Shown here piece after piece: positions 737 through 48,265 of a stretch of DNA of 64,000 nt. Where the stretch lies: contig CAVPXI010000014.1 in assembly GCA_963709585.1 (NCBI GenBank), positions 32,001-96,000 of the forward strand, given 5' to 3'. The position numbers and the translations under genes were made by a program. The notes under the pieces are model-generated. The model ran no database searches, had not been told where the DNA came from, and saw nothing but the letters and a program-made list of their open reading frames with translations. The number at the start of each line of letters is the position of its first letter. Positions within the stretch are counted from its first letter, which is position 1. Source of the stretch: Candidatus Dormiibacterota bacterium. GTDB lineage: Bacteria; Chloroflexota; Dormibacteria; Aeolococcales; Aeolococcaceae.

Positions 737-1386
737 GACGGCTGGGCCCGTGGCGGCGTGCACATCGTGACCCGCCATGACTGTGACGCGTCGGATAGGC
801 CACCACCGAAAGGAGCACGAATCGCGAAGAGATCGAACACGCCCCAGACGATCGTGGGTGTGGCACTGATGGGCGGATACACAAGCACAGCGGGCTGCGT
901 CTCTCCGGGATCGAGGTGCAGCGTGCAGTTCTGGTCGCTCGGCTCGAGGCTCAGGATGGCGAGGGGAAACATCGGGTGATAGAAATGGCTGAGCGGACCT
1001 GTGGCCGCGGCCTTCGGCGTGTAGTTGACGGCTACCTGCATCGCATTCAGCTGCGGGTCTGATCCTGCTGCACCGTTATTGCGCACCGCGACTCCGACGA
1101 AGGTGAAGTCGCCAAGCGGTTCCAGCGCCTTCCAATCGCTCGCATCCGTCCCGATGGTCTTGATCAGCCCCTTGCCTGATGCGCGGGACACCATGACGAC
1201 CGTCATCGGATCCGGGTTCCTGTAGATCCCGCCATCCGGGCTCGTGTTGATCGTGACATCCGCCAGCGCCTTGCCGCTCTGCGGAAGGCCGAGTGACGTC
1301 AGCGTCAGCGTTGGGGCCGGTCCCGCGCATGCCACCAATACGCTGAGGCAGAGCAGCGCGACAGCCGCAGGCCAGCGGGTGCTCAT
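733..1386 (-). CDS. Lipoprotein of unknown function
   Basis: C-terminal part of ORF 733..2349; starts MSTRWPAAVALLCLSVLVAC (signal peptide plus lipobox LVAC); ATGA overlap with the permease stop. Confidence 0.7.
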   Translation of the reverse strand: MSTRWPAAVALLCLSVLVACAGPAPTLTLTSLGLPQSGKALADVTINTSPDGGIYRNPDPMTVVMVSRASGKGLIKTIGTDASDWKALEPLGDFTFVGVAVRNNGAAGSDPQLNAMQVAVNYTPKAAATGPLSHFYHPMFPLAILSLEPSDQNCTLHLDPGETQPAVLVYPPISATPTIVWGVFDLFAIRAPFGGGLSDASQSWRVTMCTPPRAQPS

Positions 1387-2144
1387 CGACGTCGCAGCAC
1401 GATGCGGCCCAGGGTGACGATGATCGTCGCGCTCGTGATCATCGTCAGGCATGCAGCCACGATCGCTGTTCTGGCATCGAAGGCAGCGACGCCTCCCAGC
1501 GCGCCGGTGAACGCCGAATCCAGGTAGGTGAATGGATCCACCTGTGCCGCGATCCAACGCCAGCCGGCTCGAGGCACGCCGGTGAAGAGACCGCCGAAAA
1601 AGAGGAGCGGCGCGAGCAGCACCACCACATCGATCAGCACCTCCCCCGCTCCACCTCCAGCCGACGACACCACCGAGCCGAGCACGTTGGCCATGAACAG
1701 CACCGCGATCAGGATCACCACAAGCGCGAACGCACCCGGAGCAGTGACCGGCGCCAGCGCGAAGAGCACGATCAGGGTCGGCACCAGTTGGATCACGTCG
1801 ATGATCGTCGAGCCGGCGACCCAACTCAACATTGATCGACCCGGGGAGCGCGGGGTCACCGCGAGCCGGGCGAGCAATCCACTCTCGCGTGCCCTCGCAA
1901 TGCTGATCGCCGATCCCACGGCGCCGGTCATGGCGGTCAGGGTTGTGAGCAGCATCCCGGCCCAGAAGGTGGGAGCATGCCCGAGCAGGAGTGGCAGCGT
2001 CAGTACGAGCGGGATCGCCAGCTTCAACACCAGCGCACGTGGGCGGGCCACGGTGACGAGCAGTTCGCGAACGAACAGGCTTGCCGGCATCACGCGACGC
2101 CATGGGGCGATCGAACCCTGAACCGGAACAGCGGAACTGCTCAT
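1383..2144 (-). CDS. ABC-2 type transporter permease
   Basis: About 6 TM helices; ARESGLLARLAVTP and DPFTY ABC-2 motifs. Confidence 0.85.
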   Translation of the reverse strand: MSSSAVPVQGSIAPWRRVMPASLFVRELLVTVARPRALVLKLAIPLVLTLPLLLGHAPTFWAGMLLTTLTAMTGAVGSAISIARARESGLLARLAVTPRSPGRSMLSWVAGSTIIDVIQLVPTLIVLFALAPVTAPGAFALVVILIAVLFMANVLGSVVSSAGGGAGEVLIDVVVLLAPLLFFGGLFTGVPRAGWRWIAAQVDPFTYLDSAFTGALGGVAAFDARTAIVAACLTMITSATIIVTLGRIVLRRR

Positions 2145-3127
2145 CGTGGTGATACGCCGGCGTTGAAAGCCGATCCGGTGAGCTGACTGAAGGCGTCACT
2201 GAGATCGGGTCTACGGATCCGAACGGCGCGCACCCCTCCGGGCCACCCGTCGACGACGCGCACCACCGCAGCGAGCGCCGCGTCGTCGAGCAGGTCGACA
2301 GTGACAACGCCTCGGGCATACGCGGCGTTGTCGATGCCGAGGAGCACACTCAGGTCGTCCATCCGCGGTTCCGTGGTGCTGTCGATATCCAACTCCACGC
2401 GACGCGCTGTACCGACGCCGGCCAGCAATTGCTCTGGCGTGGCGTCTGCGAGCACGGTTCCTCCATCGAGAAAGATCACGCGGTCGCATGCCTCCGCCAC
2501 GAAGGCGCAGTCGTTGCTGGCGACCAGGGTCGCGCTTCCGCGGCGCGCGCGATTCATGAGCTCCTCGCCCAAGGCACTGATGCCTTCGGCATCCAGACCA
2601 GCAGTGGGTTCATCGAGGAGCGCGAGACGAGGCTCGTGCGCCAGCGCTTGCGCGAGCGCGAGCCGCCGGCGCATCCCGAACGAATACCCGGCAATCGGCT
2701 CGTCCGCAACCGCCGCGAGCCCGAACCGGCGCAGCGCATCCTCGACCAGATCGCCCGTGTTCTCGCGCGCCCACTGCCGGCACCAGAAGTACGTCGCCTG
2801 CCGTCCGGTGAGGCCGGGGTCGTCGAGCACCGCATCAGGAGCGAACCCGATCCAACGGCGGCCGTCACGCGGTCGCGCGGTCCCACACCAGCGCACGATG
2901 CCCCGGCGCGGCCGGGTCGATGTCGCGAGGATGCGCAACAGCGTTGTCTTGCCCGCGCCGTTTGCGCCCATGAGTGCCGTGCGCTCGCCTGGGGCGATGC
3001 AGAGATCGACGGGTCCGACGCCGCGACCATTGCGAAAACGATGCCCGACTCCGGCCGCGTCGAGGATCGGCGCGAGCCGGAGTGGCTGGCCCGGAGCGGT
3101 CTCGTCGACGCGTGGCTGCAGGATCAC
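2141..3127 (-). CDS. ABC transporter ATP-binding protein
   Basis: Walker A GANGAGKT, signature YSFGMRRR, Walker B LLDEP; likely start GTG at 3127. Confidence 0.9.
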   Translation of the reverse strand: MILQPRVDETAPGQPLRLAPILDAAGVGHRFRNGRGVGPVDLCIAPGERTALMGANGAGKTTLLRILATSTRPRRGIVRWCGTARPRDGRRWIGFAPDAVLDDPGLTGRQATYFWCRQWARENTGDLVEDALRRFGLAAVADEPIAGYSFGMRRRLALAQALAHEPRLALLDEPTAGLDAEGISALGEELMNRARRGSATLVASNDCAFVAEACDRVIFLDGGTVLADATPEQLLAGVGTARRVELDIDSTTEPRMDDLSVLLGIDNAAYARGVVTVDLLDDAALAAVVRVVDGWPGGVRAVRIRRPDLSDAFSQLTGSAFNAGVSPR

Positions 3128-3508
3128 AGCGCCGGCGCCAATGTGAGGAGTGTCGCGACCTGCGCCGCGACTTCGGTGGGTTTGAACGGCGTCCGGACGA
3201 GACCCGCGGCTCCCGCATGCATCGCCGGCTCGGCAAGCTGCGGCTGGCGGCCGTCGATGATCGCCAGCCATCCGGCGCTGAGACGGGCGGCCGATGGCAT
3301 TCGCACGATGCCCCGCAATCTGCAGGTCGATCAACCCGACGTCAATCGTGCCGGTGCCGATCGCGTCTTCAAGTGCCTGCGACGTGGCCACAGAAGTCAC
3401 GTCGTGTCCCTCGCGGGCGAGCTTGTGCGAGAGGATGCGCGCGACCGCTGGTTCAGGCGTCGCGATCACGATGCGCCGTTGCGCTCCCGGTCGGAGATCA
3501 GTCGACAT
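3124..3508 (-). CDS. Atypical response-regulator receiver domain protein (one frameshift near 3300)
   Basis: N-half RRIVIATPEP...LAREGHDV...GLIDLQ and C-half AGAAGLVRTPFKP lie in different frames; receiver fold with degenerate acidic pocket and Lys. Confidence 0.6.
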
Positions 3509-3962
3509 GCTGCGATCCCTCGCCACTCCACGCCAGGAGCGGCCATCCGTTCTCGTCGATGTCGCAGATGCGACACATCGCGCCTGCCACGCCGGCGCGC
3601 TCGAGCGACGCGCGTGCCTCGTCAGGTGTCGACTCGCACGATGCCATCAACGAATCGCCGTCCTGGGTGATCTCCCAGCCCAGTTCCTGAAGCACGCCGG
3701 CGGTCCAGCTGACCAGGCCGAGGCGGTTACGCAGACGCTCGCCGAGCGCGCTCACCGCCGCCGACGGGGTGATCACCGCGGCGTCGACGTCGATGCCTGG
3801 ATCCTCCACCCCCTCGAGCTCGTACAGTCGTCGCATCCACTGCGGCCACGGCGGTTCAACGACAGCGCGCAACTCCTCACTCGCAGATCGAAAGAGGTGG
3901 AGCCGCAGCGCCACATGTCCCGCCTCGGGTGTGAGGATGTCGGGCGCATGAGCGTCGCTCAT
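3498..3962 (-). CDS. Hypothetical protein
   Basis: 154-aa ORF translationally coupled within the operon. Confidence 0.65.
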   Translation of the reverse strand: MSDAHAPDILTPEAGHVALRLHLFRSASEELRAVVEPPWPQWMRRLYELEGVEDPGIDVDAAVITPSAAVSALGERLRNRLGLVSWTAGVLQELGWEITQDGDSLMASCESTPDEARASLERAGVAGAMCRICDIDENGWPLLAWSGEGSQHVD

Positions 3963-5386
3963 CCTGTGGAACCACCGAGCTGGCTCGGCTGCGAGTTGAT
4001 GATCTGCTGGTTGTTGATCGTCAACTCCCCACTGATGAGATAGGGCTGACGCGAGTTCTCGCGAATCACGCCCATCACGATCATCATCACGCTGACCACG
4101 ACGCCGAGCCCAAGCAGCAGCGCCTGGCTGCGCCGGCCGATCGCGCCCGGACGCATCTGTTCACGGCTCACCGCGCGAAGGTAGATCGTGAGCGCCCAAA
4201 GCCCGAGGAAGACCATCGCCATGAGCGCGCTCACCTTGTACGGGATGAAGTTACCAAGCGGGTTGAGGAGACCGCCGTCCCAGAAGGGCCGCGCCTCGTG
4301 CCAGGCGACGACATCCGCGTAGGTCGGAGCGAACCACGCCGGCAACGCCGCAAACATGGTGACGAGGAGGAGCACCAGCGCAAGCACTCCCTGGCGACGA
4401 TGATGTGGCGCACCGGACGCGCGCATCCGGCGCCAGAAGTAGGCACTGCCGAGCGTAAAGATCATGCCCAGCAATGTGATCTGGACGAGAAAGACATTGC
4501 TGAGATCGCCGAACATCATGTTGAACCACGCCGGATAGGCGTGCAGCTGGATCTCCTTGGCGTAGGAATACCCAAGCCACGGCTGCAGGAGCGTCACCCC
4601 GAACGCCCACATCGCGCCCCACTGGGCCGCCCAATCCCAGTAGCGCGCCTCACGCAGCTGGACCGGCTCGGCGACAGGCGCCTCGAGTGCCAGCGCGCCG
4701 ACCGATCGCACGGATCGGAGCGGTGCCTGCACGGCGGTGGTCCGCTCGATGTTGCGGTTCAGTCGCCAGTAGCGGAACGCTGCCCCAAATGCGAGGGCGG
4801 CGCCGGCCCACGCGATGTTGCCGACCGTGCGATGGATGGTGAGCGGGATCTCGGTCGGGTTGAGGACTTGATCGAGGAAGTTCGCATCGCCGCCGTTCGG
4901 GGTGAGCATGAACGACGCCACGGCGTCGATGAAGAACATCTGCCACCACTGGGCGAGGTTCAGCACGAAGAGCATGCCCAACCGAGCCGGCCGGTGGACC
5001 CGGAGCCGGTCCCAGTTCGCGTAGAGCGTGTAGAGCAGCACCACTTCGGCGAGAAACGTGAGCGCCTCGGCGAAGAACACCCAGAAGGTGATCTGCTGCA
5101 GCGCGACAAAGAATCGTCCCCAGATCGCTCCAAGGATGATCACCATGAAGAAGATCGCCACTGCGGCGCCGAAGCTGAAGATGTAGACCTCTGTCTTGAG
5201 GAGGCCGTGGCCGAGACGGTCGTGGCGCTCGTCGCCGCTCCGGCGGGCCATCCCGATCGCCTCGCTCACGATGGCGAGGGTCGTCGCGCCGATCAGGAAT
5301 GCGGCAATCTGGATGTGCAGGAGGATCACGACGGCAACGAGCACGCCGTTGGTCAGGAGGTCGCCGGGAATCGGATTCAGAGTCAT
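3959..5386 (-). CDS. Cytochrome bd-type oxidase subunit I (CydA)-like protein lacking a Q-loop
   Basis: LLHIQIA (His19-like), FAEALTFLAE (helix-3 glutamates), SFMLTP, TIHRTVGN (His186-like), C-terminal GVIRENSRQPY (E..RQP motif). Confidence 0.85.
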   Translation of the reverse strand: MTLNPIPGDLLTNGVLVAVVILLHIQIAAFLIGATTLAIVSEAIGMARRSGDERHDRLGHGLLKTEVYIFSFGAAVAIFFMVIILGAIWGRFFVALQQITFWVFFAEALTFLAEVVLLYTLYANWDRLRVHRPARLGMLFVLNLAQWWQMFFIDAVASFMLTPNGGDANFLDQVLNPTEIPLTIHRTVGNIAWAGAALAFGAAFRYWRLNRNIERTTAVQAPLRSVRSVGALALEAPVAEPVQLREARYWDWAAQWGAMWAFGVTLLQPWLGYSYAKEIQLHAYPAWFNMMFGDLSNVFLVQITLLGMIFTLGSAYFWRRMRASGAPHHRRQGVLALVLLLVTMFAALPAWFAPTYADVVAWHEARPFWDGGLLNPLGNFIPYKVSALMAMVFLGLWALTIYLRAVSREQMRPGAIGRRSQALLLGLGVVVSVMMIVMGVIRENSRQPYLISGELTINNQQIINSQPSQLGGSTG

Positions 5387-5396
5387 GGCCGCGGGT

Positions 5397-6575
5397 TCAC
5401 AGGCCGTACAGGCGATTCACGCCGAGTGTCGCCAGAAAGATCACCGCGAAGATGACGAAGATCGCCGGCACGAGGATCTCGGGTCTGCGCGTGGGTCGTC
5501 GCTCCGGTGATCGGTCCAGCACGGGCAGCAGGAACATCGCCGCGGCACCGCCTCCGACGATAATCAGTACGCCGATGGCAATCAGCGGGTCCTGCGGCGT
5601 CAGCACCAGGAACTGGTCGAGCGGAAGATAAAACCACTCGGGCGTGGGCACGTATGTGAGGGTCGCGGGGTTGGCGATCGTGTCGAGTGGTGCACCGCCA
5701 ATGCCGCCCATGATGAAGATGAACAGGATCAGCGCGGCGCTCACCAGCGTATCCTTGAAAAACTGATTCGGGAAGAAGTCAACGGTCTTGTTCGGTGCCG
5801 CATACCGCCGCTCGATACGCTTGGTGGGGTACGGCGGCTCCGCCGCGCGGATGCGCTCCGCGATCTCACGACTGGGATTGCCGGTGCTGGTGTCGTAGTT
5901 GACCCACGCGCCGAACTCGCCATGGCGCCGGAGCAGATAGATATGACCACCGATGAATGCGAAGAGCAGGAATGGAAGCACCCATATGTGAATCGCGAAC
6001 GTCCGCGTGAGCGTGATCGGCCCGACGAAGTCACTGCCTCGCCAGAGCTGCCGCAGACCGTTGCCGATAAACGGAACGTAGTGGAGGATGTTGGTGATGA
6101 CGGTCGCGGTCCAGTACGCGGCGTTGTCCCAAGGGAGCATCGCGCCGGTCGCAGCCAGACCGAGCACGAGAAAGAAAAGGATCACGCCGCTCATCCAGTT
6201 GAGCTCGCGCGGGCGCTTGTAGCTCGCGCTGAGAAACGTCCGCAGGGCGTGGAGCCCGATGACCAGGATCAGCGTGTATGCGCCCCAGAGGTGGAGTCCT
6301 CGAACCCACCCTCCGAAGGGATCGCTCGTCCGCAGGTAGTTGAGGCTCGACCATGCCTGCGTGACCGACGGAACGTAATCCAGCAGCAGAAAGATTCCGG
6401 TGAAGAGCTGCAGCAGGATGAGCACGAGTGTGGCGCTGCCAAGCGTGTACGCCCATCCGCCCTGTTTCGGGACGGCTTCGTACAGCCCCTTGTGGACGAG
6501 CCCCGTGAGGCCGGTGCGCTCGTCAAACCAGCGATACGCGGCCCGCGCGCGGCTCACCGGACTAGATCGATTCAT
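5397..6575 (-). CDS. Cytochrome b (fused b6/subunit IV-type) of a Rieske/cytochrome b complex
   Basis: Four heme His (GLHLWG...GLHALR; AIHIW...GGHIY), SYKRPRELNW, LPWD, Qo motif PEWF. Confidence 0.95.
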   Translation of the reverse strand: MNRSSPVSRARAAYRWFDERTGLTGLVHKGLYEAVPKQGGWAYTLGSATLVLILLQLFTGIFLLLDYVPSVTQAWSSLNYLRTSDPFGGWVRGLHLWGAYTLILVIGLHALRTFLSASYKRPRELNWMSGVILFFLVLGLAATGAMLPWDNAAYWTATVITNILHYVPFIGNGLRQLWRGSDFVGPITLTRTFAIHIWVLPFLLFAFIGGHIYLLRRHGEFGAWVNYDTSTGNPSREIAERIRAAEPPYPTKRIERRYAAPNKTVDFFPNQFFKDTLVSAALILFIFIMGGIGGAPLDTIANPATLTYVPTPEWFYLPLDQFLVLTPQDPLIAIGVLIIVGGGAAAMFLLPVLDRSPERRPTRRPEILVPAIFVIFAVIFLATLGVNRLYGL

Positions 6576-7062
6576 TGAGCTGGTTCTGCACCTCGATCAC
6601 CTCGCGGCCGGTCGTCGGATCGACACTCGTGCGGTGCACCCACTGCGCGAGCGGTTGTGGCGGAGGGCCGCCGATGTTGACACCGTCCATGTTGTAGAGG
6701 CCGCCGTGACACGGACAGAGGAACTGCTCGAGCTGCCCGTCCCAGTGCACGTCGCATTGCATGTGCGTGCAGATGTTGCTGAGTGTCAGCACACTGCCGT
6801 CTTCCTTGCGAACGACATAGACAACACGGTTGGTCGGCGGCGTTGGGAATCCCTGATCGCTCGGCATCGACGCAATCCGAGCCGTCGGCGTGTTGACTGG
6901 AATGCTCTCGATCGAGCCGATACTGACCCAGGCAAGTCGCCGCTTTGCGAAGAGCGGGCTCAGCACAAAGCCGACGGCGGGGATCGACAGCAAGGCTCCG
7001 ATGAGTCCCATGCCCATTCCGGTGCCGAGCACCATGAACTGACGTCGCGAGTACTTCCGCAT
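6562..7062 (-). CDS. Rieske [2Fe-2S] subunit
   Basis: Tat-like SRRQF plus TM anchor; CTHMQC and CPCHGG boxes; GGPPPQPL. Confidence 0.95.
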   Translation of the reverse strand: MRKYSRRQFMVLGTGMGMGLIGALLSIPAVGFVLSPLFAKRRLAWVSIGSIESIPVNTPTARIASMPSDQGFPTPPTNRVVYVVRKEDGSVLTLSNICTHMQCDVHWDGQLEQFLCPCHGGLYNMDGVNIGGPPPQPLAQWVHRTSVDPTTGREVIEVQNQLNESI

Positions 7063-7310
7063 CAGCCGCGTCCTCCTGTGGCGAGCAGGCCAATCACTGC
7101 AGCCAACGCGAGGCCGACCAGGACGAGCAGTCCGACGGTGCTCGCGGCGACGATGAGCAGGGCGGGGCCGTGGTCACCGGCGCGCCAGACGCGGGCGGCT
7201 CCGACCCATGCCCACGTAACACCGGTGAGCAACATCGCGAGCATCGCGATGAGGAGGATCGAGTAGTACCAGGCGGCCTGAAACTGCGCCGCCCGGATCT
7301 CGCCAATCAT
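7062..7310 (-). CDS. Small 2-TM membrane protein (possible accessory subunit)
   Basis: Two hydrophobic helices; stop overlaps the Rieske start. Confidence 0.6.
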   Translation of the reverse strand: MIGEIRAAQFQAAWYYSILLIAMLAMLLTGVTWAWVGAARVWRAGDHGPALLIVAASTVGLLVLVGLALAAVIGLLATGGRG

Positions 7311-7323
7311 CGCTGGCACTCGC

Positions 7324-8575
7324 TCACGGGTAGAGATCCGCCGGTGGTGTGAAGCGCTGCTGCGCCTGTGCCTGGGTCAGCACGCCGTAGACCGCGTAAT
7401 CGCCACGCGCGCCTTCCTTGATCACCCCCATCAGCAACGAGGTCAGGAGAGCGAACGATCCGACCAGCACCAAGACTGGTCGCAACAACCGCGAAGGCCG
7501 CGGCTGTGGCCGGACATCGGTTGGTCGCGTCCCACACGGGCGGACGCCGACGTCGCCAGAGATGGACTGCGGTTGCGATGATCGCGATGCCGATCCCGAC
7601 AAACCGGGCGCCCTCCCATGCAGACGGCAGGATCGCGTCCGGGAGCGACGCGAGGACCATCCCCGCCAGGGACGTCAGGGTCGCCGTTGCGGCGAGAGTC
7701 CGTGAGCGCTGTGCCGCGGGGCGCTCGAGCCAGAGCGCAACGTTGCCGCCGACCAGGATGATGCCAACGAAGACTTCCTGCACCACCATCAACCAGGCCG
7801 TGCCGCCGCTCACGAGGTTCGTGAAGAATCCCGGCTGGGCGCTCTGGAGTACGAAGCTCAGGATCAGACCCTCGATCGGCATGAGCAGTGCGAGCCCCAA
7901 GCCGATCCGTAGATTGAGATGGGCAGCCCAGCCCTGAAATGCGCGTTCCCCGGCATCGGCAGATCGGCGCAGCCGCACCGCCGCATAGGCCGCCAGAAAG
8001 AGCGCCGTCCACGAGATGTTGCCGATCAGGCGATGGACGAGCAACGGCCAGTACGCCGCATTGAGGGTCGCGTCCCACAGGCCTCCGTTGAACGGGGTGA
8101 TCAGGTACGCGTCAAGTCCAACGATCAGGAAGACGAAGAGGGTCTGCAGTCCGGCGACGACCGTGCCGAGGATGGCGTGCGTTCGCGGCGTGAGCCGCCC
8201 CCAGCTGTTCCGGTACCAGGTCAGCAGCGGGGCGATCAGAAAGAAGAGTCCGAACGCGAACGCGAGCAGCGGCAACAGCACGTTGAAGAGCTGGCCGAAC
8301 CCGTTACCCCAGAGGCCGATGAGAAGCACCACGGCAAAGACCGCGAGCGTTGCCCCAAGGCTGAACACGAAGTAGAAGCTGTTCACCGCCGAATGGGCGT
8401 ACCGCCACGGTCGAGGATCATGGGTCGCCAGCGCACGCCACTCCATGACGACGGCCAACGTGATCGCGCCCACCGAGAACTCAGCGACGGCAACGTGCAG
8501 CAGGAAGATGATCCCCACCGGAATGCTGTTGCCGAGCCAGGGAAATTGCGGCGGTGTGACCTGGAGGGCAAGCAT
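7324..8575 (-). CDS. Second CydA-like protein (CydA'-like; one frameshift near 7530)
   Basis: FLLHVAVAEF, AYLITP, LVHRLIGN; C-terminus GVIKEGARGDYAVYG in the next frame (ORF 7324..7602). Confidence 0.8.
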
Positions 8576-8608
8576 TCGATCAAGCTCCACGCCGCTTCCG
8601 ACCACCGT

Positions 8609-10652
8609 CTATGGCAGGGTGGCGTCGGCGGCGTGAACGAGCTCGCCATTCGCAACCTGGCGCCGACCGAGCGAGTCGACAACCGGCGCCGTCACCTCAT
8701 TGAGCACGTGAGGGCACGCGGGCCGGTCAGTGTCTTGCGATGGCGCTTGATGTATGGGACATCCAGCGGGCGCGGTTGTTGCCGGCGGGGGTTCGCTGGC
8801 GCGCATGCGAGCACGGGCTTCCGCGATCCCAGCCTCGGCATGGAGCACCGTCACCTCGCTCGCCTTCAGTGCAATTGCCAGCCGTTCGACCTGCTCCACA
8901 GCCAGACTGCGAAGGAATCCACCGGGGATCCGTTCGATCCGCTCCTGGGCTTCCGGGCTCCACGGAAGATGTGCTCGCTGCTCGCTGCCCGAGGTCGCAC
9001 CGTCAGCACCGAGTGGCGCGCGATGCGGGCCGGCACCGGCGTCGAGTGCCTCGACCTCAGGGAGGACAAAGGGCGCAGCGACATCGGCGGTGATGGCTGG
9101 AAGCCGTCTGGTGCGTGCGGTTTTTTCGACGATCGCCTTCACCCGGCGACGGAGATACCCGGCCGGAAGCTGCTGCAGGAGCGTCCGCGCTTCAAGGGTC
9201 CAGCCGAGCTTGTGACCATCGAAGGTGTCGCTCGCCATCTCGCCCTCGGCGCTCGCGGCACGGGCTACCGCTCCGACATCGATCTGCTCGAACATGTCGC
9301 CATCGCTCCCGCAGACCGGGCATCGCGCGGGCGCGTCGGTCCGGGCCGCGTAACCGCAGGTGCGACAGATCGCACGAGCGCTTTCCGGGGGAGCCTCATC
9401 GAGCATCGCCGCGGTGGCGGCGTCGAGCGCCGAACTGACCTCCTCAATGCGCCGCATCGTCCGCCGATACGGCATGAGGTCGTCAAGCGCCGTGTCCACG
9501 TCTCCCGAGGACACGACGCTGTGCCCTCGTTCGGTGCACCAGCGCAGGACGGCGGTTCGAGCGAGTCCTCGAGCGGCCGCAGGGACACCCTCCATGCGCG
9601 CCTCTGCCTCCGGCGTCCAGACCACGCTCGCCTCGGCTCGGACATCGATCGGGGGGACGTGCGTCCGGTTGCACACCAGCACGTTGCACGCAGCATTGCG
9701 AATCAGGTGATCCGTGTTGCTGCCGAGGTCCATCCCGGGGGGAGAGTGCACGCCGACACGACCGCATACCAGCAACCAGGCATCGCGTTCAGCGGCATAT
9801 CGCGCCACACGCTGAAACGCCTTGCCATCGAGCAGGGTGATCGGCAGCTCAACACCCATTTCCGCGGCCTGCGCCTGGGCGACGCGCAGATGCGAACTCG
9901 TAGATCTGCGCCAGACCACTGTCGATGATCTCCTCGTGTAGCGCCTCCTGCTCTTTGAAACGAAACACCTTGGAGGCCTTCTCAGAGAGGACATCGACGA
10001 TGCCGTTGAACACGCTGTAATGGAGGTACGGGTCGTAGACCGCCACTGCCTCGACCTCTTTCTTGAGTGCCTGGCCGAGCGAAAGCGCGACCTGCAGGCC
10101 GCCGAACGACTGTGGTGATCCGTCGATGGCCACGATGATGCCGCCTTCCATGACGGCGTCCCCGGTACGGCGCACGATCAAAGAGTCCGTCCGGATTCGT
10201 CGCGCTACGCGATCCGCGACGCTGCCGAGACGTGAGTCCTTAACCGCCCCCGTTCCCAGCGCGCCCATGACGACAAGGTCGGGACGGACCTCCTCGATGT
10301 CGGCGACCAGCTCTTCCCAGTTGCGTCCGTCTCGAGCGCGCGCCTCGAATTCGATCTCGCGCTCGAGACAACGATATCGCATCACATCGGTGTAGCTTTC
10401 GCTGATCAGCTGCAATCCCGTGGTGATCAGCGAGTCATGGATCCGGCGTTGCCGGAGGAGCTCCGCCTCGTCCTGGTACTCGTCCGGGAGCGTGTACTCC
10501 ATCTGTTTGAAGCGGTAGTCGTGCATGCGTGCCGCGTAGACGTGCATGCCGATGCAGCGGGACGAGAACGCCTCCGCAAGCTCGAGAGCCACGGTGGTTC
10601 CAGCATCGGAGTGCTCTGAGTTGTCGAGTGCCACGTAGATGCTCTTGTACAT
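8609..10652 (-). CDS. Multidomain universal stress protein: USP-USP, PCP_red repeats, rubredoxin-like knuckle (one frameshift near 9896)
   Basis: MYKSIYVALDNS...GSVADRV; IIVAIDGS...LGSNTDHL; three W(T/S)xEA..L..(V/I/L)P repeats; CRTCGY...CPVCG. Confidence 0.8.
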
Positions 10653-10772
10653 GGACTCCTGTGCCCCATTGACCGCCGACACACAAGCCGCCCTCGGCCC
10701 CGAATGATACAGGATGTCTACCATATGATGTGTCGGGATCCGAGCCCATAGGTGGCTACTGAGGTGACAGAC

Positions 10773-11490
10773 ATGAGCGACTACACCGCACTCAGAAGAT
10801 CATCCGCACCGCTGCCCGGTCTCCCACGAGCCGGGGGCCGGATCTGCGCCCGGTGGATGTCCCGTCCCGCAGGGGGCCCACTGGACGGAAGACGGGCATC
10901 AGGTGGCGCTGAAGACGGCAAACGCGCATGCCGCAGCGAGCCATCTGGAGGCCGAGCGTGCTGCGTCGATGGCGCACGCGGTTGCGGATCAGCGCGCCGG
11001 CGATCGCGGGGTGGACGAGATCAACGAACGCTTCATCGCGCTGATCGGAGGGAAGCTCGGATACGGGCACCCGCTCAGCGGACGCACAGGGACGCTCGAG
11101 TTCACCTGGACGCCCGAGGCGGAAGAACGGCTCAAGGAGGTGCCGGAATTCTGCCGCGAGCTCACCAGGTGGCGAGTTGAATGGACTGCGCACAAGAAGG
11201 GGCTCGGATCCGTGATCACCCCCGACGCCATGGAAACGAAGTACGAGCTCTGGGGCGAGGTCTCACATCGGATTGAGGCGCGCGGCGGCCAGAGCCTCCC
11301 GTGGACCCCGAGCGCGCTCGCGCGTCTGGACCGCGTGCCCGACTTCGTTCGCGGTCAGGTGATCGAGGCAGTGGAGGGCGGGGCTCGGCGGCTGCATCAG
11401 GACCTCGTCGACGACACGGTCCTCGACGACACGATCAGGCGATGGACGGCCACCGGCGACTTCCATGAGGGCCGCTTCGGCTTTCGCTGA
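10773..11490 (+). CDS. PCP reductase (PCP_red) domain protein with N-terminal CP motifs (probable frameshift near 10790)
   Basis: FTWTPEAEERLKEVPEFCR and LPWTPSALARLDRVPDFVRG; frame extends upstream of 10903 as HRCPVSH...GCPVPQG; RBS GAGGTG before ATG at 10773. Confidence 0.7.
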
Positions 11491-36616: not shown

Positions 36617-37567
36617 TTACAAACGCGAGACGAGGTCAGCCACGATCTCCGCCGCTGGTCGTAGCTGCCTGGCGAGCGCGACGCTCTGTCCGGCCCACAT
36701 GGAGAGCGCTTCAATGTCACCGGTGGTGCCAACCATCGGGGGCGCTGGCTCGTAGCGGACGATTGCTTCGCCCGAAGCGAAGTGCGCGATGACATCACCC
36801 GCTCCGGGCCGACTCTCCAGAGGCGGGCGGCCCGCGGCCTCCCAGATCTCGGCCGTCGAGTTTCGGAGCGCGCGATGGGGCGAGTCCGGCCAATCGACGT
36901 CATAGAGGTCGGGGTACCACTCCGCGTCGGTCTCGACGGCGTTGATCAGGCGAGTGCGGTAGTCCTGGTGAATGGGCATCTCGTGGGCAAGCAGAAACTG
37001 GGTACCCACCCACGCCGCCTGAGCGCCTAAGGCGAGGACAGCGGCCACACCGCGAGCGTCCCCGATCCCACCGGCCGCGATCACCGGCACCGGCGCCACC
37101 GCGTCCACGACGGCGGGCACCAACGGGAGCGTCGCAATCTGACTCCCCACGTGCCCCCCAGCCTCCCAACCCTGCGCCACGATGACATCAGCTCCGCGGG
37201 CGACCGCTCGCCGCGCCTCTCGGGCGCTTCCGACCGTACACAGAACAAGTCCGCCGGCATCGTGGACCCGCTCGATGTAGCCAGCGGGATCTCCCAGAAA
37301 CAGTGACACGATCCGCAAACCGGCCTCCAGGGCTTGATCGAGGCGACGGTGCTGATCGGAGGTGAGAACAAGGTTGCCGCAGAAGGGACGATCGGTGAGC
37401 GCCGCCGTCTCGCGAACCACGTCTCCTGCCGGGTCGGACCACGTGAGCGTCACCATGCCGAGCCCGCCGGCATTCGAGACCGCTGCCGCCAGTTCGGGCA
37501 CCGCCACCATCGCCGCCAAGACAATCGGTTGTTCAATCCCGAGCAGTTCGCAGACCGGCGTCCGCAT
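36617..37567 (-). CDS. Nitronate monooxygenase family protein
   Basis: AVSNAGGLG, QGWEAGGH, AAGGIGDARG, AGQSV. Confidence 0.9.
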   Translation of the reverse strand: MRTPVCELLGIEQPIVLAAMVAVPELAAAVSNAGGLGMVTLTWSDPAGDVVRETAALTDRPFCGNLVLTSDQHRRLDQALEAGLRIVSLFLGDPAGYIERVHDAGGLVLCTVGSAREARRAVARGADVIVAQGWEAGGHVGSQIATLPLVPAVVDAVAPVPVIAAGGIGDARGVAAVLALGAQAAWVGTQFLLAHEMPIHQDYRTRLINAVETDAEWYPDLYDVDWPDSPHRALRNSTAEIWEAAGRPPLESRPGAGDVIAHFASGEAIVRYEPAPPMVGTTGDIEALSMWAGQSVALARQLRPAAEIVADLVSRL

Positions 37568-39752: not shown

Positions 39753-41162
39753 TCAGTCGTCGCTCTCGTCGCGGTGACGGGTCACGATCCGGAGCCGCAC
39801 CCCGGCGAAGCCGAAGACGGCACGGATTCGGTTCTCGAGATAGCGCTGATACGCGAAGTGCATCAGCTCGGGGTCGTTGACGAAGAGCACGATCGTCGGC
39901 ACCGGGCTTCGCGCTTGCGTGGCGTAGAGGATCTTGAGGCGCCGACCTTTGTGGGTTCGAGGCGGATGCTCATCGAGCGCATTGCGAATGAGATTGTTGA
40001 GCGCCGGTGTCGGGATGTGGATCGCTCGCGCGTCGGCGACCGCCAGCACCGCCGGCATCACGCGCTTGAGGTTGCGACGCTCGGTGGCCGACAGGGTGAG
40101 CACCGGAACGCCCGGAACGAACGAGAACGAGTCCTGGAGCTTCTTCAGGAATCCCGGGTCGACCCGATCCTCGTGCTTCACCAGATCCCACTTGTTCGCA
40201 GCCACGACCAGGCCGGCGCCGGCCTCCACCGCATACCCGGCGATGTGCCGGTCCTGAGCGCTCGCTCCCTCCGACGCGTCGATCACCAGAACACCAACGT
40301 CGCTGCGTTGCAGGGCGCGGAGCGATCGCAGCAGGCTGTAGCGCTCGACGTTCTCGGTGACGATGCCCCGCCGCCGGATGCCCGCCGTATCGACGAGCCG
40401 GATCTTCCGCCCATCGAGCGAAACCACGGTGTCGACGACGTCGCGCGTCGTTCCCGCGACCGGCGACACCAGCGCGCGCTCCGAGCCGACCAGCCCGTTG
40501 AGCAGGGAGGACTTTCCGGTGTTAGGCCGGCCGATGATCGCGACGCTCACCTCGCCCGCCGCAGGCTCGGTCCCCGCAGCCCCGTTCTCGGGAAGCTCGG
40601 CAACGAAGCGATCGAGCAGATCACCGGTGTCTGTCCCCTGGAGCGCCGAGATCAGGAGCGGATCGCCGAGCCCGAGCCGGTACAGCTCGTCGGCGCGATA
40701 GCGGTCGACCTGGCTGTCGGCCTTGTTGCCCACCAGGATCACCGGCCGCCCCCCGCGCCGCAGCGCCTGGGCGATCTCCTCGTCCAGCGCGGTCACGCCG
40801 TCACGGACGTCGACCATGAAGCAGCAGACGTCAGCTTCGGTGATCGCCATCTCCGCCTGCTCCCGGGTCGCCCGCGTCAGGGCGGCGATGTCAGGGGCGG
40901 CGTCGCGCGGCAGGGGCACGTCCAGCCCGGCGGTGTCCACGACCGTGAAGCGCTTGCCGCCCCACTCCACCACGCCATATAGACGGTCGCGCGTCAGCCC
41001 GGCGAACGCGTCCACGATCGCTCGCCGAGTGCCCGTGAGCCGGTTGAACAGCGTGGACTTGCCGACATTGGGACGGCCGACGATCGCCACCACGCCCACT
41101 GCCGGCGCAATCGGATCCGCCTCATCGCGGCGACGCCGGCGAGTGGCGCCGGCCGGGCTCAT
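39753..41162 (-). CDS. der: Ribosome biogenesis GTPase Der
   Basis: Two GTPase domains (GRPNVGKS/DTAG/NKAD; GRPNTGKS/DTAG/NKWD) plus KH-like tail YQRYLENRIR. Confidence 0.97.
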   Translation of the reverse strand: MSPAGATRRRRRDEADPIAPAVGVVAIVGRPNVGKSTLFNRLTGTRRAIVDAFAGLTRDRLYGVVEWGGKRFTVVDTAGLDVPLPRDAAPDIAALTRATREQAEMAITEADVCCFMVDVRDGVTALDEEIAQALRRGGRPVILVGNKADSQVDRYRADELYRLGLGDPLLISALQGTDTGDLLDRFVAELPENGAAGTEPAAGEVSVAIIGRPNTGKSSLLNGLVGSERALVSPVAGTTRDVVDTVVSLDGRKIRLVDTAGIRRRGIVTENVERYSLLRSLRALQRSDVGVLVIDASEGASAQDRHIAGYAVEAGAGLVVAANKWDLVKHEDRVDPGFLKKLQDSFSFVPGVPVLTLSATERRNLKRVMPAVLAVADARAIHIPTPALNNLIRNALDEHPPRTHKGRRLKILYATQARSPVPTIVLFVNDPELMHFAYQRYLENRIRAVFGFAGVRLRIVTRHRDESDD

Positions 41163-41611
41163 TTCCCCCCGCCGGGGACCGGCGAGATGTCCATCGCGAT
41201 CTGCGCGAACGGGGCTCCCTCGGTTTCCAGCGCGAAGGCGTTGAAATCCTCCGCGCCCGCCTGGGTGGTCCGGCAGATGATGTAGACGTAGTCGAGCCAC
41301 GCCCGGTCGGTGTCGAACTGTGAGGGCCGCGCCGGGTGATCGGGGTGGCTGTGCCAGATGCCGGCGATGTCGAGCCCCCGCGATCGCGCGTCGCGATCCG
41401 CCTGCATGAAGTCAACGGGGTCGAGGTCGTAGCGATCGGCGCTGCGCTCGGTCCACATATTGCGTGCCGACGTCGCGTCGACGATGAGCATGCGCGTCCC
41501 GTCGCGCCGTCCGAGCAGAACGCCGCAACCCTCGTTGGGGTAGGCGGCGACGGCAAGGTCGCGAACGCGCTGCGCCGCGGCGGGCGCGATCGTCGCGAAA
41601 CGCAGGTTCAA
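41159..41611 (-). CDS. M67/JAB metallopeptidase (Mec-like)
   Basis: YPNEGCG, WHSHPDHPARPSQFD JAMM motif. Confidence 0.9.
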   Translation of the reverse strand: MNLRFATIAPAAAQRVRDLAVAAYPNEGCGVLLGRRDGTRMLIVDATSARNMWTERSADRYDLDPVDFMQADRDARSRGLDIAGIWHSHPDHPARPSQFDTDRAWLDYVYIICRTTQAGAEDFNAFALETEGAPFAQIAMDISPVPGGGK

Positions 41612-42570
41612 CGCCCGGACCGCCGGTACAGCCCCGTGGAGAGGTAGCGATCGCCTCCGTCCGGCAGCACGGTGACGATCACCCCTCGGCCGATCCGCCG
41701 CGCGATCTCGCCGCAGGCCCAGAGTGCCGCGCCGCTCGAATGCCCGGCGAGGATCCCCTCGGCGCGGGCGAGCTTCCGGGCGAGGTCGTACGCGGGCTCG
41801 GTCTCGACGCCGAGGTCCTCGTCGGCGAGCGAGGGGTCATAGATCCCGGGCACGATCGACGTCTCCATGTGCTTCAGGCCTTCGAGGCCGTGCCACGGCT
41901 CGGCGGGCTGCACGCTGATGCACTGCACGTCCGGGTTCATCGCCTTGAGACGCCGGGTCACGCCCATGAAGGTCCCGCTCGTCCCCAGCGCGGCGACAAA
42001 ATGGGTCACGGTGCCGCCGGTCTGCTCCCAGATCTCGGCGCCCGTGCCATCGTAGTGCGCACGCCAGTTGGCATCGTTGTTGTACTGGTCGGGCATGAAG
42101 AACCGGTCCGGGTTCTCGTCATACATGGCGCGAACAAGCCGGATGGCACCGTCGCTTCCCTCGAGCGGATCGCTGTACTCGACCTCGGCCCCAAATGCGC
42201 TGACCAACTGGCGGCGCTCCTCACTCACGTTGCCGGGCATCACCAGGCGTACCCGATATCCCTTCGCTGCTCCGATCATCGCGTACGCGATGCCGGTGTT
42301 GCCGCTGGTGCTGTCCATGATGATGCGCTCTCGAGTGAGCCTCCCGGATCGCTCGCCATCCTCGATCATGCGCAGCGCGGGCCGATCCTTCACCGACCCG
42401 CCGGGGTTGAGGAACTCCGCCTTGGCGTACACGGCCACGTCCGGGCACTCCTCCTCGAACATGCGAACCCGGAGCAGCGGCGTGTTGCCGATACGTTCGG
42501 TGATCGTCTCCCCCATCTCCCTCGGCACGAGCGTCAACGCCGGCTTCGCCGGCGGCTGCGGCGTGGTCAC
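41608..42570 (-). CDS. cysM: Cysteine synthase (CysM-like)
   Basis: NPGGSVKDR, TSGNTG, GTSGT, DGGDRYLS. Confidence 0.9.
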   Translation of the reverse strand: MTTPQPPAKPALTLVPREMGETITERIGNTPLLRVRMFEEECPDVAVYAKAEFLNPGGSVKDRPALRMIEDGERSGRLTRERIIMDSTSGNTGIAYAMIGAAKGYRVRLVMPGNVSEERRQLVSAFGAEVEYSDPLEGSDGAIRLVRAMYDENPDRFFMPDQYNNDANWRAHYDGTGAEIWEQTGGTVTHFVAALGTSGTFMGVTRRLKAMNPDVQCISVQPAEPWHGLEGLKHMETSIVPGIYDPSLADEDLGVETEPAYDLARKLARAEGILAGHSSGAALWACGEIARRIGRGVIVTVLPDGGDRYLSTGLYRRSGR

Positions 42571-42575
42571 GCCCC

Positions 42576-42800
42576 TCAGCTCGCTGCGGCTCCCTGTGCG
42601 ACCCGGAACCCCGCAGAACCGCGCCGCTGGTCCGCGATCACCGCGATGACGGCCTCAGAGCGGACGAGGAACGGCCCGTCCTCGCCCGGAAGCTCGACAA
42701 ACGCCGCGCCACCGTCGGAGGCGTTGAGTTTGGCGATGATCTCCTCGACGGTGAGCTTTACCGAGAGGTCACCACCGTTGGCGAGACGAACGTGTGCCAT
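42576..42800 (-). CDS. Small hypothetical protein
   Basis: 74-aa ORF with GGAGG RBS. Confidence 0.65.
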   Translation of the reverse strand: MAHVRLANGGDLSVKLTVEEIIAKLNASDGGAAFVELPGEDGPFLVRSEAVIAVIADQRRGSAGFRVAQGAAAS

Positions 42801-42848
42801 AGCCTCCCTAGAGTACCGGGTCGGCGTGCTCCCGGTCCCGATCCGCCG

Positions 42849-44078
42849 TCAAGCGGCCGACGCGGCGACCATCGCGGAGTCGAACTCCGCCTTCAGGTCA
42901 TCGATGTGCTCGATGCCGACGCTGATGCGCACCAGTCCATCGCCGATGCCGAGCGCGGCACGCTGTTGCGGGGACAGCGCCCGGTGTGAGGTGCTCGCCG
43001 GGTAGCTCACCGTGGTGGCGACATCGCCGAGGCTCGGCGCCAGGCGGATCCCATCGAGACCTCGGATGAAGGCATCCGCGGCTCGTGCGCCGCCGCGAAG
43101 GTCGATGCTGAGCATCGGTCCCCGGCCGCGGGGCAACAGCCGGTCGGCAAGCTCCGCATCCTGGGCGCCGCGTCTCCCGGGGTAATGCACCGCCGCGAGC
43201 TCGCCGCGATCCGCGAAGAACTCGGCGAGCGCCGCGGCGTTCTCGCTGCAGCGCTCGATGCGCAGCCCCGCCGTGCGCAAACCGCGGAGCGCGAGCCACG
43301 CATCGAACGGGGAGAGCGTGCACCCGAGCAGCCGGGCGTTGGCGTCGAGCCAGTCGCTCGCCTCGTGCTCGGTAGCGACGAGGAGGATGCCGCCGCTCAC
43401 GTCGCTGTGGCCGGCGAGGTGCTTGGTGAGGCTGTGCATCACCAGGTCGGCGCCGTGCGCGATCGGCTGGAAGAGGAACGGCGGTGTGAAGGTCGAGTCC
43501 ACGACGCATGCGGCGCCGGCCTGATGCGCCGCGGCAGCGATGGCGGGGACGTCGATGACGCCGATCAGCGGGTTGGTGATCACCTCGGTGACCACGGCGG
43601 CGACGTCGGGACCGAGCACGGCCGCGCACAGCTCGCCGTGACTTCCGCCGCCATTGACGGGGATGTCGACGGTCGACGTCCGCACGCCGAGGTTACCGAG
43701 CGGTCCGGCAAGGAGCGAATCCGTGCCTCCGTAGCAGGGCCGCACCACCACGACCCGCGGGCGCGACGGTGTGACCACGAGCGTCACCGCCAGCAGCAGC
43801 GCCGCCTGGCCGCTCGAGGTCACCCGCGCCACCGGCGCGGCGCGTCCCGGAACCGTCTCGAGCTCGATGATCGCCTCCTCGAGGCGCTGCGGATTGCCGC
43901 CGCCATAGCGGCGGTAGGCGTTCCGCCCCTCCATCGCCTCGTCGACCGACGGGAGATCGGCGTACGCACGCACCGAGGCGAGGCTCATCGGCGCAACCAG
44001 GTCGACGCCGTCGCCGGTGTCGCCACGGCCGAGCCCCGCCCTGGCAGTCGATGTGGTCGGATCGACGCGCCTGGTCAC
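42849..44078 (-). CDS. Cys/Met metabolism PLP-dependent enzyme (cystathionine gamma-synthase/lyase-like)
   Basis: VVDSTF, HSLTKHLAGHSDV, APSLG, RISVGIE. Confidence 0.9.
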   Translation of the reverse strand: MTRRVDPTTSTARAGLGRGDTGDGVDLVAPMSLASVRAYADLPSVDEAMEGRNAYRRYGGGNPQRLEEAIIELETVPGRAAPVARVTSSGQAALLLAVTLVVTPSRPRVVVVRPCYGGTDSLLAGPLGNLGVRTSTVDIPVNGGGSHGELCAAVLGPDVAAVVTEVITNPLIGVIDVPAIAAAAHQAGAACVVDSTFTPPFLFQPIAHGADLVMHSLTKHLAGHSDVSGGILLVATEHEASDWLDANARLLGCTLSPFDAWLALRGLRTAGLRIERCSENAAALAEFFADRGELAAVHYPGRRGAQDAELADRLLPRGRGPMLSIDLRGGARAADAFIRGLDGIRLAPSLGDVATTVSYPASTSHRALSPQQRAALGIGDGLVRISVGIEHIDDLKAEFDSAMVAASAA

Positions 44079-44080
44079 GA

Positions 44081-46764
<2,684 letters not shown>

Positions 46765-46866
46765 GCCCGAAGCCTAGTGGGGCGGCCACTCGGGCTGCAT
46801 CCGTTGTAGCCTTGCGCAGCGAACTCTCGTCGTTCCACTCCACGTCTTTCCAGGAGGTCGCCCGTC

Positions 46867-47346
46867 ATGGCCGTTCGAGTCCTGCCCGCTGGGACCATCG
46901 GGATTCCCCTGAACCCCGTACCCGCGCCCGAGCCCCCGCCGCTCGAGGTCGAGGACGACGTCCCGACGCTCCACCTCGTGGGTCGCAGCGAGCAACGCCT
47001 CGCCCAGGCGCTCTTCCAGACCGAGGGCGTCGACGAGCCCGAAAGCCCGGACACAGTCCGCGCGTTGCGCCTGCTGGCGATGGACAACCTCGTCGACATC
47101 ATCCAGTTGCGAGAGGTCGTCGAGGAGCGCGATGCCCAGGTGGCCGCGCTCACCGGCGAGGTCGACATGTGGCGGGCTCGCGCCCTCGAGGAGCATGCCC
47201 ATCGGGGCGTCGAACAGCGCGAGGCCGCGCGCCGCGAGCGCGACCTGATCACCGTGCTGCACAGCGAGCTGGTCCGCAACGAGGTCCTGTCCGGGGAGCT
47301 GGCCTGGCGCCGCACGCCCTGGTTCCGTCGCATCGGCCGGCACTGA
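46867..47346 (+). CDS. Hypothetical coiled-coil protein
   Basis: 159-aa ORF with AGGAGG RBS; basic/aromatic C-terminus RRTPWFRRIG. Confidence 0.65.
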   Translation: MAVRVLPAGTIGIPLNPVPAPEPPPLEVEDDVPTLHLVGRSEQRLAQALFQTEGVDEPESPDTVRALRLLAMDNLVDIIQLREVVEERDAQVAALTGEVDMWRARALEEHAHRGVEQREAARRERDLITVLHSELVRNEVLSGELAWRRTPWFRRIGRH

Positions 47347-48231: not shown

Positions 48232-48265
48232 CGCCCGAGAAGCCTATCAGGGGGCGGGGATCGAC

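Follow-up and report, generated by a model that had tools for sequence, protein, structure and literature searches.

The window analysed here, a stretch of 64,000 nucleotides (positions 32,001 to 96,000 of contig 14, CAVPXI010000014.1, in the Candidatus Dormiibacterota assembly GCA_963709585.1), carries on its minus strand a compact operon in which a Rieske protein and a b6-like cytochrome b are encoded between two relatives of cytochrome bd subunit I, here called CydA and CydA′. The gene content, the tight linkage of the genes, the conservation of the ligands, the lack of a Q-loop and the lack of haem c are observed directly. The comparison of related loci gives strong support to a functional coupling between the Rieske/cytochrome b unit and the CydA/CydA′ pair. 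A more specific proposal, to which we give about an even chance, is that the proteins form a quinol-to-O2 supercomplex in which the Rieske cluster would reduce haem b558 of CydA; from sequence we infer the contact, the transfer and O2 as the acceptor alike.

The operon and its proteins

The core of the operon, from its first gene to its last, is as follows (window coordinates, with the basis of each identification in brackets).

7324..8605, minus strand: CydA′, the 'b'-type bd-like subunit, about 425 residues when read without the extra base described below (PF01654 at 8e-10)
7062..7319, minus strand: protein of 85 residues with two hydrophobic stretches (open reading frame; no family match)
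6562..7062, minus strand: Rieske [2Fe-2S] protein, 166 residues (PF00355 at 2.8e-11)
5397..6575, minus strand: cytochrome b, 392 residues, a b6-like N-terminal part fused to a subunit-IV-like part (PF00033 at 1.2e-41)
3959..5386, minus strand: CydA, the 'a'-type bd-like subunit, 475 residues (hhalign to canonical CydA, AlphaFold2 and Foldseek)

Neighbouring genes of this core are separated by -14 to +10 nucleotides, in agreement with the first-pass annotation of the window, which had described a coupled operon of cydA′, a small transmembrane protein, Rieske, cytb and cydA. The core belongs to a run of nine minus-strand open reading frames (ORFs) that spans 10724 to 1383, neighbours being -29 to +10 nucleotides apart, in the order stress-protein gene, CydA′, 85-residue protein, Rieske, cytochrome b, CydA, 154-residue protein, ABC ATPase and ABC-2 permease. 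A promoter scan gave no signal above shuffled sequences, and no NCBIfam model reached its cut-off for any protein of the module. CydB (PF02322) was not found by Pfam scan among the operon and flanking ORFs, as had been noted at first pass; the genome has a canonical cydA-cydB pair on a different contig, and CydB was found only there.

CydA gives no Pfam match at E ≤ 0.01 and no sequence match to solved chains at E ≤ 1, with either phmmer or a profile. It is 30% identical to CydA′ (E 3e-21), and the profile of its family aligns with the genome's canonical CydA over the first five helices only (hhalign 92%, E 6e-7), with H24, E107/E114 and H185 falling on the canonical His, Glu/Glu and His. AlphaFold2 predicts ten long helices for both proteins (CydA: pLDDT 70, pTM 0.72; CydA′: pLDDT 74, pTM 0.78), and in Foldseek searches of the PDB the ten best matches are all bd subunit I chains, for the CydA model (E 4e-6 to 2e-4) as for the CydA′ model (E 6e-7 to 9e-5). 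Profile and predicted fold assign both proteins to the cytochrome bd superfamily, with the fold of subunit I. The models share their fold with canonical CydAB (6RKO, 5DOQ, 7OY2, 9R2G), and CydA has the same haem-ligand and active-site residues, in helices 1-5 and 7 and in the last loop; the window pair differs from canonical CydAB in having no Q-loop, a CydA paralogue in place of CydB, and ten helices.

The residues in question are H24, E107, E114, H185, M291 and E443-x2-RQP (with R446) in CydA, and H36, H190 and E396-x2-R-G-D in CydA′, which has no helix-3 glutamates. Both proteins keep the haem histidines, as had been claimed, and only the 'a' member of the pair keeps the channel glutamates E107 and E114. 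In a census of 104 'a'-type sequences drawn from related loci, H24 is kept in 102, E107 in 101, H185 in 103, M291 in 102, E443 in 102 and R446 in 99. Among the 'b'-type rows, H36 is found in 86 of 86 non-gap rows and H190 in 93 of 98, the helix-3 glutamates are absent, and E396 is kept in Dormibacteria yet in 54 of 96 rows overall. The conserved 'a' positions would correspond to the three haem ligand sets and the active-site glutamate of canonical CydA. CydA E443 is presumably the equivalent of E. coli E445. The numbering of the E. coli protein in the available portion of a preprint is H19, E99, E107, H186 and M393 (bioRxiv 10.1101/2021.01.16.426971).

The loop between helices 6 and 7 of CydA is GYSYAKEIQLHAYPAWFNMM, with a length of 18 residues, and that of CydA′ is equally short. 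In canonical quinol-oxidising bd enzymes it is here that the Q-loop is found, with its quinol-binding Lys/Glu motif. The Q-loop of the genome's own canonical CydA has about 90 residues and contains ...QPIKLAAME..., and comparison of the helix 6-7 loops with it shows that the motif is absent from both CydA and CydA′, as the first reading of the window had it. Conserved in this stretch of the 'a' rows are Y275, K277 and M291. Neither protein has a CxxCH motif according to the genome-wide list of CxxCH ORFs, and the other proteins of the module lack one too. Among 38 more distant relatives scanned for a haem c domain, five have a C-terminal cytochrome c domain, which fits an entry of single electrons at the outer face in this branch of the superfamily.

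The best solved match of the cytochrome b is cytochrome b6 (3.6e-44). Its haem ligands are H95/H109 and H196/H211, and helix D aligns with that of b6 without gaps, so that 14 residues lie between H196 and H211. The alignment places a Thr at the position of the b6 haem-ci Cys; at position 44 a Cys occurs in 0 of 97 non-gap rows of relatives. The PEWF motif is present and is kept across relatives. The three features read at first pass, namely the His spacing, the missing haem-ci Cys and PEWF, are confirmed. The N-terminus of the Rieske protein is of the twin-arginine kind (SRRQF), and its cluster boxes CTHMQC and CPCHGG provide the cluster and disulphide residues C98, H100, C103, C116, C118 and H119; the boxes are kept in 98-99 of 102 rows, and the best solved relatives are b6f-type Rieske proteins. 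With four His ligands, a PEWY-type Qo motif and the Rieske boxes, the predicted unit is of the bc1/b6f kind. No gene for a cytochrome c1, cytochrome f or di-haem c subunit was found in the operon or in the 160 related loci described below.

In metagenome loci L119-L190, many cytochrome b matches come in two pieces, and the extracted gene has only about 260 residues. This suggests that many distant relatives have a split b6 and subunit IV, unlike the fused 392-residue gene of the window. An apparent fusion of cytochrome b and CydA in one genome (G025, an open frame of 982 residues) was rejected as an off-frame overlap in GC-rich DNA.

CydA′ appears truncated in the window because of an extra base near 7525. 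The ORF as the window reads it runs from 8605 to 7307 on the minus strand, its frame breaking after about residue 361 with the loss of the last ~65 residues. A comparison assembly (L023), 97.7% identical over 10,538 aligned columns, differs from the window by exactly three indels; in every case the window has a single additional base (near 9896, 7525 and 3287), and each alters a reading frame. The base near 9896 splits the stress-protein gene, a single ORF of 681 residues in genomes G004 and G014, into two overlapping ORFs, and that near 3287 joins a short ORF to the ABC ATPase, the two being in different frames in L023 and G004. The base near 7525 is also absent from three congeners. Contigs from soil sequencing runs lack the extra base at about 7527 in 4 of 4 runs, at about 9895 in 4 of 4, and at about 3285 in the one run covering it; the source sample may be among the four runs, all of one study, which limits their independence. 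Since three gene-hitting single extra bases lie within 10.5 kb and all are absent from relatives and runs, they are probably assembly errors, and other genes of this genome may be broken likewise.

An intact form of CydA′ clearly exists. It has about 425 residues and ends ...MGVIKEGARGDYAVYGVL... / ...LLMGVIKEGARGDYAVYGVL..., with the motif IKE..R, so that the Glu and Arg of E..R are retained here too. Of the earlier claim that the helix-3 glutamates and E..RQP are kept by the protein at 3959..5386 only, the part on the glutamates stands, and the part on the second motif has to be modified. A module in decay, with CydA′ a frameshifted pseudogene, would match the broken frame as read, but it is very improbable and was rejected: the base is absent both from the near-identical assembly and from the soil-run contigs, and the two further gene-hitting bases, likewise absent, follow the pattern of assembly indels.

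Linkage, distribution and electron carriers

Related loci were taken from a one-genome-per-species scan (the best 80 of 148 relatives) and from a metagenome scan queried with outer members of the CydA branch (the best 80 of 249), giving 160 loci. Wherever a locus has 3.7 kb or more upstream of 'a', the genes stand in the order bd-like b, Rieske, cytochrome b, bd-like a (94 of 94 loci). Of the 160 loci, 106 have all four genes, the remainder being cut by contig ends. The linkage holds down to about 30% identity, and one cluster of relatives is named Ktedonobacterales; within the best 80 of 148 from the one-genome-per-species scan, all relatives are labelled Dormibacteria-type or are, as read here, mislabelled. 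No conserved CxxCH ORF was found in the 160 loci. Those CxxCH ORFs that do occur, 18 and 16 in the two sets of 80, are DnaJ, a Cys motif of the stress protein, and off-frame ORFs. The first-pass annotation had proposed a bc-bd hybrid chain and had suggested synteny as a check on it; the unbroken linkage, together with the lack of a conserved cytochrome c gene, supports the part of that reading which concerns functional coupling.

Among 1.84 billion representative proteins searched, 453 matched at E ≤ 1e-3, and of these just 39 reached E ≤ 1e-30. The phylum, as the genome collection defines it, is large and has 68 families; of 301 of its genomes taken as a sample (with one unpublished genome in the tally), 21 have the CydA gene at E ≤ 1e-30, namely the window's own genome, 16 of the 33 others that belong to its class, and 4 outside that class.

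A tree of 89 rows was rooted on the genome's canonical CydA as the outgroup. CydA and CydA′ fall in one clade of 37 rows, with proteins of 388-484 residues, which is separate from a clade of 33 rows (mostly long proteins) and from a clade of 15 rows holding most of the haem-c-bearing proteins. Both proteins thus stand outside the canonical quinol oxidases and among relatives without a Q-loop. A canonical placement with an intact quinol site, or a dedicated cytochrome c encoded at every homologous locus, had been named beforehand as evidence that would speak against the hybrid chain; the placement is non-canonical and no cytochrome c is co-encoded, so neither was found.

The genome from which the window comes has 88 six-frame CxxCH ORFs, and inside the window there is one dubious example of 96 residues, so the first-pass statement that no CxxCH cytochrome c gene lies nearby holds. 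The genome also has a CcsA-like gene, three cupredoxins and, on contig 18, a second cytochrome b beside an ORF with three CxxCH motifs and a haem-copper oxidase. It therefore makes c-type cytochromes, and the term 'cytochrome c-free' applied at first pass is right for the operon, across all 160 loci, and wrong for the cell.

Some further observations belong here. An ORF of 96 residues (37081..37371, minus strand) has no Pfam match and begins with the same 45 residues as an ORF of contig 13 (196275-196541), so that it may belong to a repeated element. On contig 14, past the window's end, an ORF for a CxxCH monohaem lipoprotein of 175 residues (100738-101265) adjoins a haem-copper oxidase, whose subunit I gene (102956-104268, about 7 kb past the window's end) is in two pieces with an in-frame TGA. 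The break may be a further assembly error. Two [NiFe]-hydrogenase large-subunit genes lie on contigs 16 and 13, in keeping with the hydrogen oxidation reported for the Dormibacteria group.

The picture is different in the sister family (f2, within genomes G025-G040), represented by 12 genomes which carry the module and are 84-93% complete, one of them (G037) being a single contig of 2.5 Mb. PF01578, PF00034 and PF13442 each match in 0 of the 12 genomes, and ResB in 0 of 5, so that neither cytochrome c nor the maturation families searched (CcsA/CcmC/CcmF and ResB) gave a match. The searches do work, since in 14 control genomes the same families match in 9 (PF01578), 9 (PF00034), 7 (PF13442) and 6 (ResB). 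Absences from incomplete genomes are no proof, yet they recur in 12 of 12 genomes, including the single contig, and form a consistent pattern. In all 12, the cytochrome b of the module is the only strong PF00033 match. All 12 also encode haem-copper oxidases, one or two each; the CuA motif is intact in the two COX2 proteins of G037, neither of which has haem c. The family (for example at loci L016, L191 and L192) looks like a bacterial lineage respiring without haem c. With no cytochrome c match in these 12 genomes, cytochrome c cannot be the obligatory acceptor, and the predicted acceptor of the Rieske electron must, at least in this family, be something other than cytochrome c. The genome search for c-type cytochromes suggested at first pass has therefore given a divided answer: they are present in the window's genome, and have no match in this family.

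A proposed electron route and its rivals

In the proposed mechanism, the b6-type Rieske/cytochrome b unit would oxidise (mena)quinol at its Qo site. One electron would go back to the quinone pool via the two b haems, and the other would go to the Rieske cluster at the outer face of the membrane. Because cytochrome c1 and cytochrome f are absent, the Rieske protein would hand this electron to a haem of CydA: the Rieske head would deliver it to the His/Met-ligated b558-like haem of the 'a'-type protein, at the short conserved loop that replaces the Q-loop, and its next stop would be the two-haem site for oxygen reduction in CydA helices 1-4. CydA′ would be the paralogous partner in place of CydB. 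The route from quinol through Rieske and b558 to O2 seems the most economical, because the CydA/CydA′ pair never leaves the Rieske protein and because CydA has the full bd-type haem and active-site set and no quinol site.

Several observations weigh against this route. Confidence in the AlphaFold2 models is no more than moderate (pLDDT 70 and 74). Of the 104 'a' rows, 67 have the second channel glutamate, E114, and 28 have Gln in its place. In the window's own genus the gene is present in only 4 of 24 other genomes, so the module is dispensable. A direct transfer from Rieske to haem has also to be weighed against the cupredoxins which module genomes encode and which could carry the electron. 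There are 2-4 cupredoxin genes in every one of the 12 genomes without cytochrome c matches, and one of them, for a lipoprotein whose copper site reads C-x2-H-x2-M, is found at a distance of 0.9-6 kb from CydA in 10 of the 160 loci. Taken with the CuA-site oxidases of the same family, this means that the Rieske protein may reduce a copper protein and not CydA.

The two halves of the module could be co-expressed units served by a small mobile carrier encoded elsewhere, either a lipoprotein cupredoxin or, where one is made, a monohaem cytochrome c, which would take the Rieske electron to CydA/CydA′, to the CuA haem-copper oxidases or to both. Besides the cupredoxins just described, one of which (in L090) is directly downstream on the same strand, this would suit the COX2 pair of G037, which has CuA without haem c and therefore needs an outer-face donor, and the window's genome, with its CcsA-like gene, its triple CxxCH ORF, its 175-residue monohaem lipoprotein ORF and its three cupredoxins. 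However, 150 of the 160 loci keep no carrier gene in the module, the cupredoxin found near CydA belongs to a single subgroup and is in most cases encoded on the other strand, and a four-gene linkage so strict and so deep would exceed what is usual for separate complexes that are merely co-regulated. We consider a mobile carrier unlikely, while giving it more weight than any other rival. Somewhat less likely again is that CydA/CydA′ is no terminal oxidase at all, and serves as a haem-b stand-in for c1 or f, relaying Rieske electrons to cupredoxin and CuA oxidases. In Sulfolobus a haem-b protein, CbsA, is indeed found beside a Rieske/cytochrome b unit. In the family without cytochrome c matches, there is no strong cytochrome b outside the module, although two CuA-type oxidases have to be supplied with electrons; and CydA′ keeps H36, H190 and, in Dormibacteria, E396, so that the number of haems bound may exceed the needs of a single oxidase site. 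Against a relay stands the retention of the oxygen-site residues H24, E107, E443 and R446 in 99-102 of 104 'a' rows, since a mere relay would not need the full set.

The complex may also be real and its acceptor not O2, with NO or peroxide being reduced or with electrons flowing in reverse, from an outer-face donor to the quinone pool. The stress-protein gene at the head of the operon and the Gln that replaces E114 in 28 of 104 rows could be read in this way, and in the available parts of two papers the acceptor has been measured for no enzyme of the OR-N family of Q-loop-less bd-like proteins, discussed below (PMC10839748; PMC12342949). But the hosts are, by their genomes, aerobes equipped with haem-copper oxidases, the active site has the same residues as in bd enzymes that reduce O2, and no linked gene for an enzyme of an alternative substrate was seen in the loci examined; we think this improbable. 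The supercomplex with transfer from the Rieske cluster to haem b558 is thus preferred. For those Dormibacteria without cytochrome c matches we offer a bolder version of it, which is more tentative than the supercomplex itself and on the doubtful side: the module would be the only complex III, with the bd-like haem-b protein replacing c1 as the direct Rieske acceptor, in a haem-c-free chain which would unite a Q cycle and O2 reduction in one supercomplex and might feed the CuA oxidases via cupredoxin.

Neighbouring genes, known systems and significance

The other genes around the core are these.

8609..10724, minus strand: stress protein, first gene of the run (Pfam: two Usp domains, a rubredoxin-like motif and PCP_red repeats)
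3498..3962, minus strand: soluble protein of 154 residues, family unknown (ORF; its start overlaps the CydA stop by 4 nucleotides)
1383..3526, minus strand: short ORF and ABC ATPase, then ABC-2 permease at 2144..1383 (Pfam ABC_tran and ABC2_membrane)
10903..11490, plus strand: divergent protein of 195 residues with two PCP_red repeats (Pfam)

Neither the 85-residue nor the 154-residue protein has a Pfam or NCBIfam match. A weak homologue of the former is found at the equivalent position in most Dormibacteria loci, and the latter is kept downstream of CydA in most of them. After CydA, the stops and starts of the 154-residue protein, short ORF, ABC ATPase and ABC-2 permease genes overlap; these genes are kept in most Dormibacteria loci and not in distant ones. 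The 154-residue protein and the ABC genes might be assembly or export factors. The gene with Usp, rubredoxin-like and PCP_red parts is upstream of the module also in the distant loci L111-L117 and L123, and the 195-residue PCP_red protein adjoins the module both in Dormibacteria and in distant loci. PCP_red is known elsewhere as the C-terminal domain of the protochlorophyllide reductase B subunit, and it is only a guess that the flanking PCP_red proteins handle or sense tetrapyrroles for the complex. The G+C content of the window is about 0.62-0.70. It rises to 0.69-0.705 at 40001..50000, whereas the rest of the window has 0.61-0.68; an M20 peptidase and an aldehyde dehydrogenase are among the large ORFs of this GC-richer segment, in which nothing unusual was found. 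Named relatives of the window's proteins are almost all from assemblies called 'Candidatus Dormibacteraeota/Dormibacteria'.

The module appears to be another member of a kind already catalogued, the OR-N bd-like family. In the available portion of the preprint by Murali, Gennis and Hemp (bioRxiv 10.1101/2021.01.16.426971), OR-N is a Q-loop-less family without a haem c motif, found in operons with an alternative electron donor and made up of a/b paralogue pairs in which only 'a' has the proton-channel glutamates; OR-N3, OR-N4 and OR-N5 have ten helices, N1 and N2 have 14, and N5a/b are noted in Chloroflexi. The first-pass annotation was right that such families have been described, and the idea is accordingly not new. 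The accessible parts of this preprint and of two papers (PMC10839748; PMC12342949) record no purified Q-loop-less bd-like enzyme and leave the electron source open. The window pair, compared with OR-N by described features, resembles it in having neither a quinol site nor CxxCH, in being a/b paralogues with channel glutamates only in 'a' (CydA), and in the ten helices of OR-N3, OR-N4 and OR-N5 (AlphaFold2, moderate confidence). The OR-N5 type of Nitrospirales adjoins alternative complex III and not a Rieske/cytochrome b unit, according to the portion of PMC12342949 available. OR-C has CxxCH in subunit I, whereas CydA and CydA′ do not, and the haem-c-fused relatives fall in other clades.

A parallel in gene arrangement is Nitrospira moscoviensis, where the available part of Mundinger et al. 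2019 (PMC6606698) has copy 1 of complex III clustered with bd-like oxidases 1 and 2, and proposes a supercomplex of III and IV. As here, Rieske and cytochrome b genes without a cytochrome c subunit of their own stand beside bd-like proteins, but in Nitrospira several c-type cytochromes are encoded nearby (PMC6606698, same part). The Nitrospira proteins are of the N1/N2 types in what is accessible of PMC12342949, and the long proteins found here form the separate clade of 33 rows. The b6f complex and the Firmicute-type b6c complex share with the window's unit the 14-residue spacing of the helix-D histidines and a b6f-type Rieske protein; the window's unit differs from them in having no haem-ci Cys, in the fusion of the b6 and subunit-IV parts, in PEWF in place of PEWY, and in having no cytochrome f or c subunit. 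Delivery from a Rieske cluster to a copper or haem-b protein, and not to cytochrome c, takes place within an oxidase supercomplex in SoxM and SoxLN-CbsAB of Sulfolobus, the oxidases of which are haem-copper enzymes and not bd-like.

No publication on a Dormibacterota operon of this kind was found in the literature searched. What is new here is the correction of the frameshift, the synteny count of 94 out of 94, the residue census, and a whole family which has the module and cupredoxins and no detectable cytochrome c machinery. The module is the cleanest genomic case for what feeds the Q-loop-less bd-like enzymes, and the case rests on four genes that are never separated, on the lack of any co-encoded haem c, and on their occurrence in genomes in which no sign of cytochrome c synthesis was found. 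The five genes also make a compact cassette for expression. If the proposal is true, Q-cycle quinol oxidation and copper-free O2 reduction are joined in one machine, which would conserve more energy per electron than an ordinary cytochrome bd, and this would bear on the persistence of Dormibacteria in soil.

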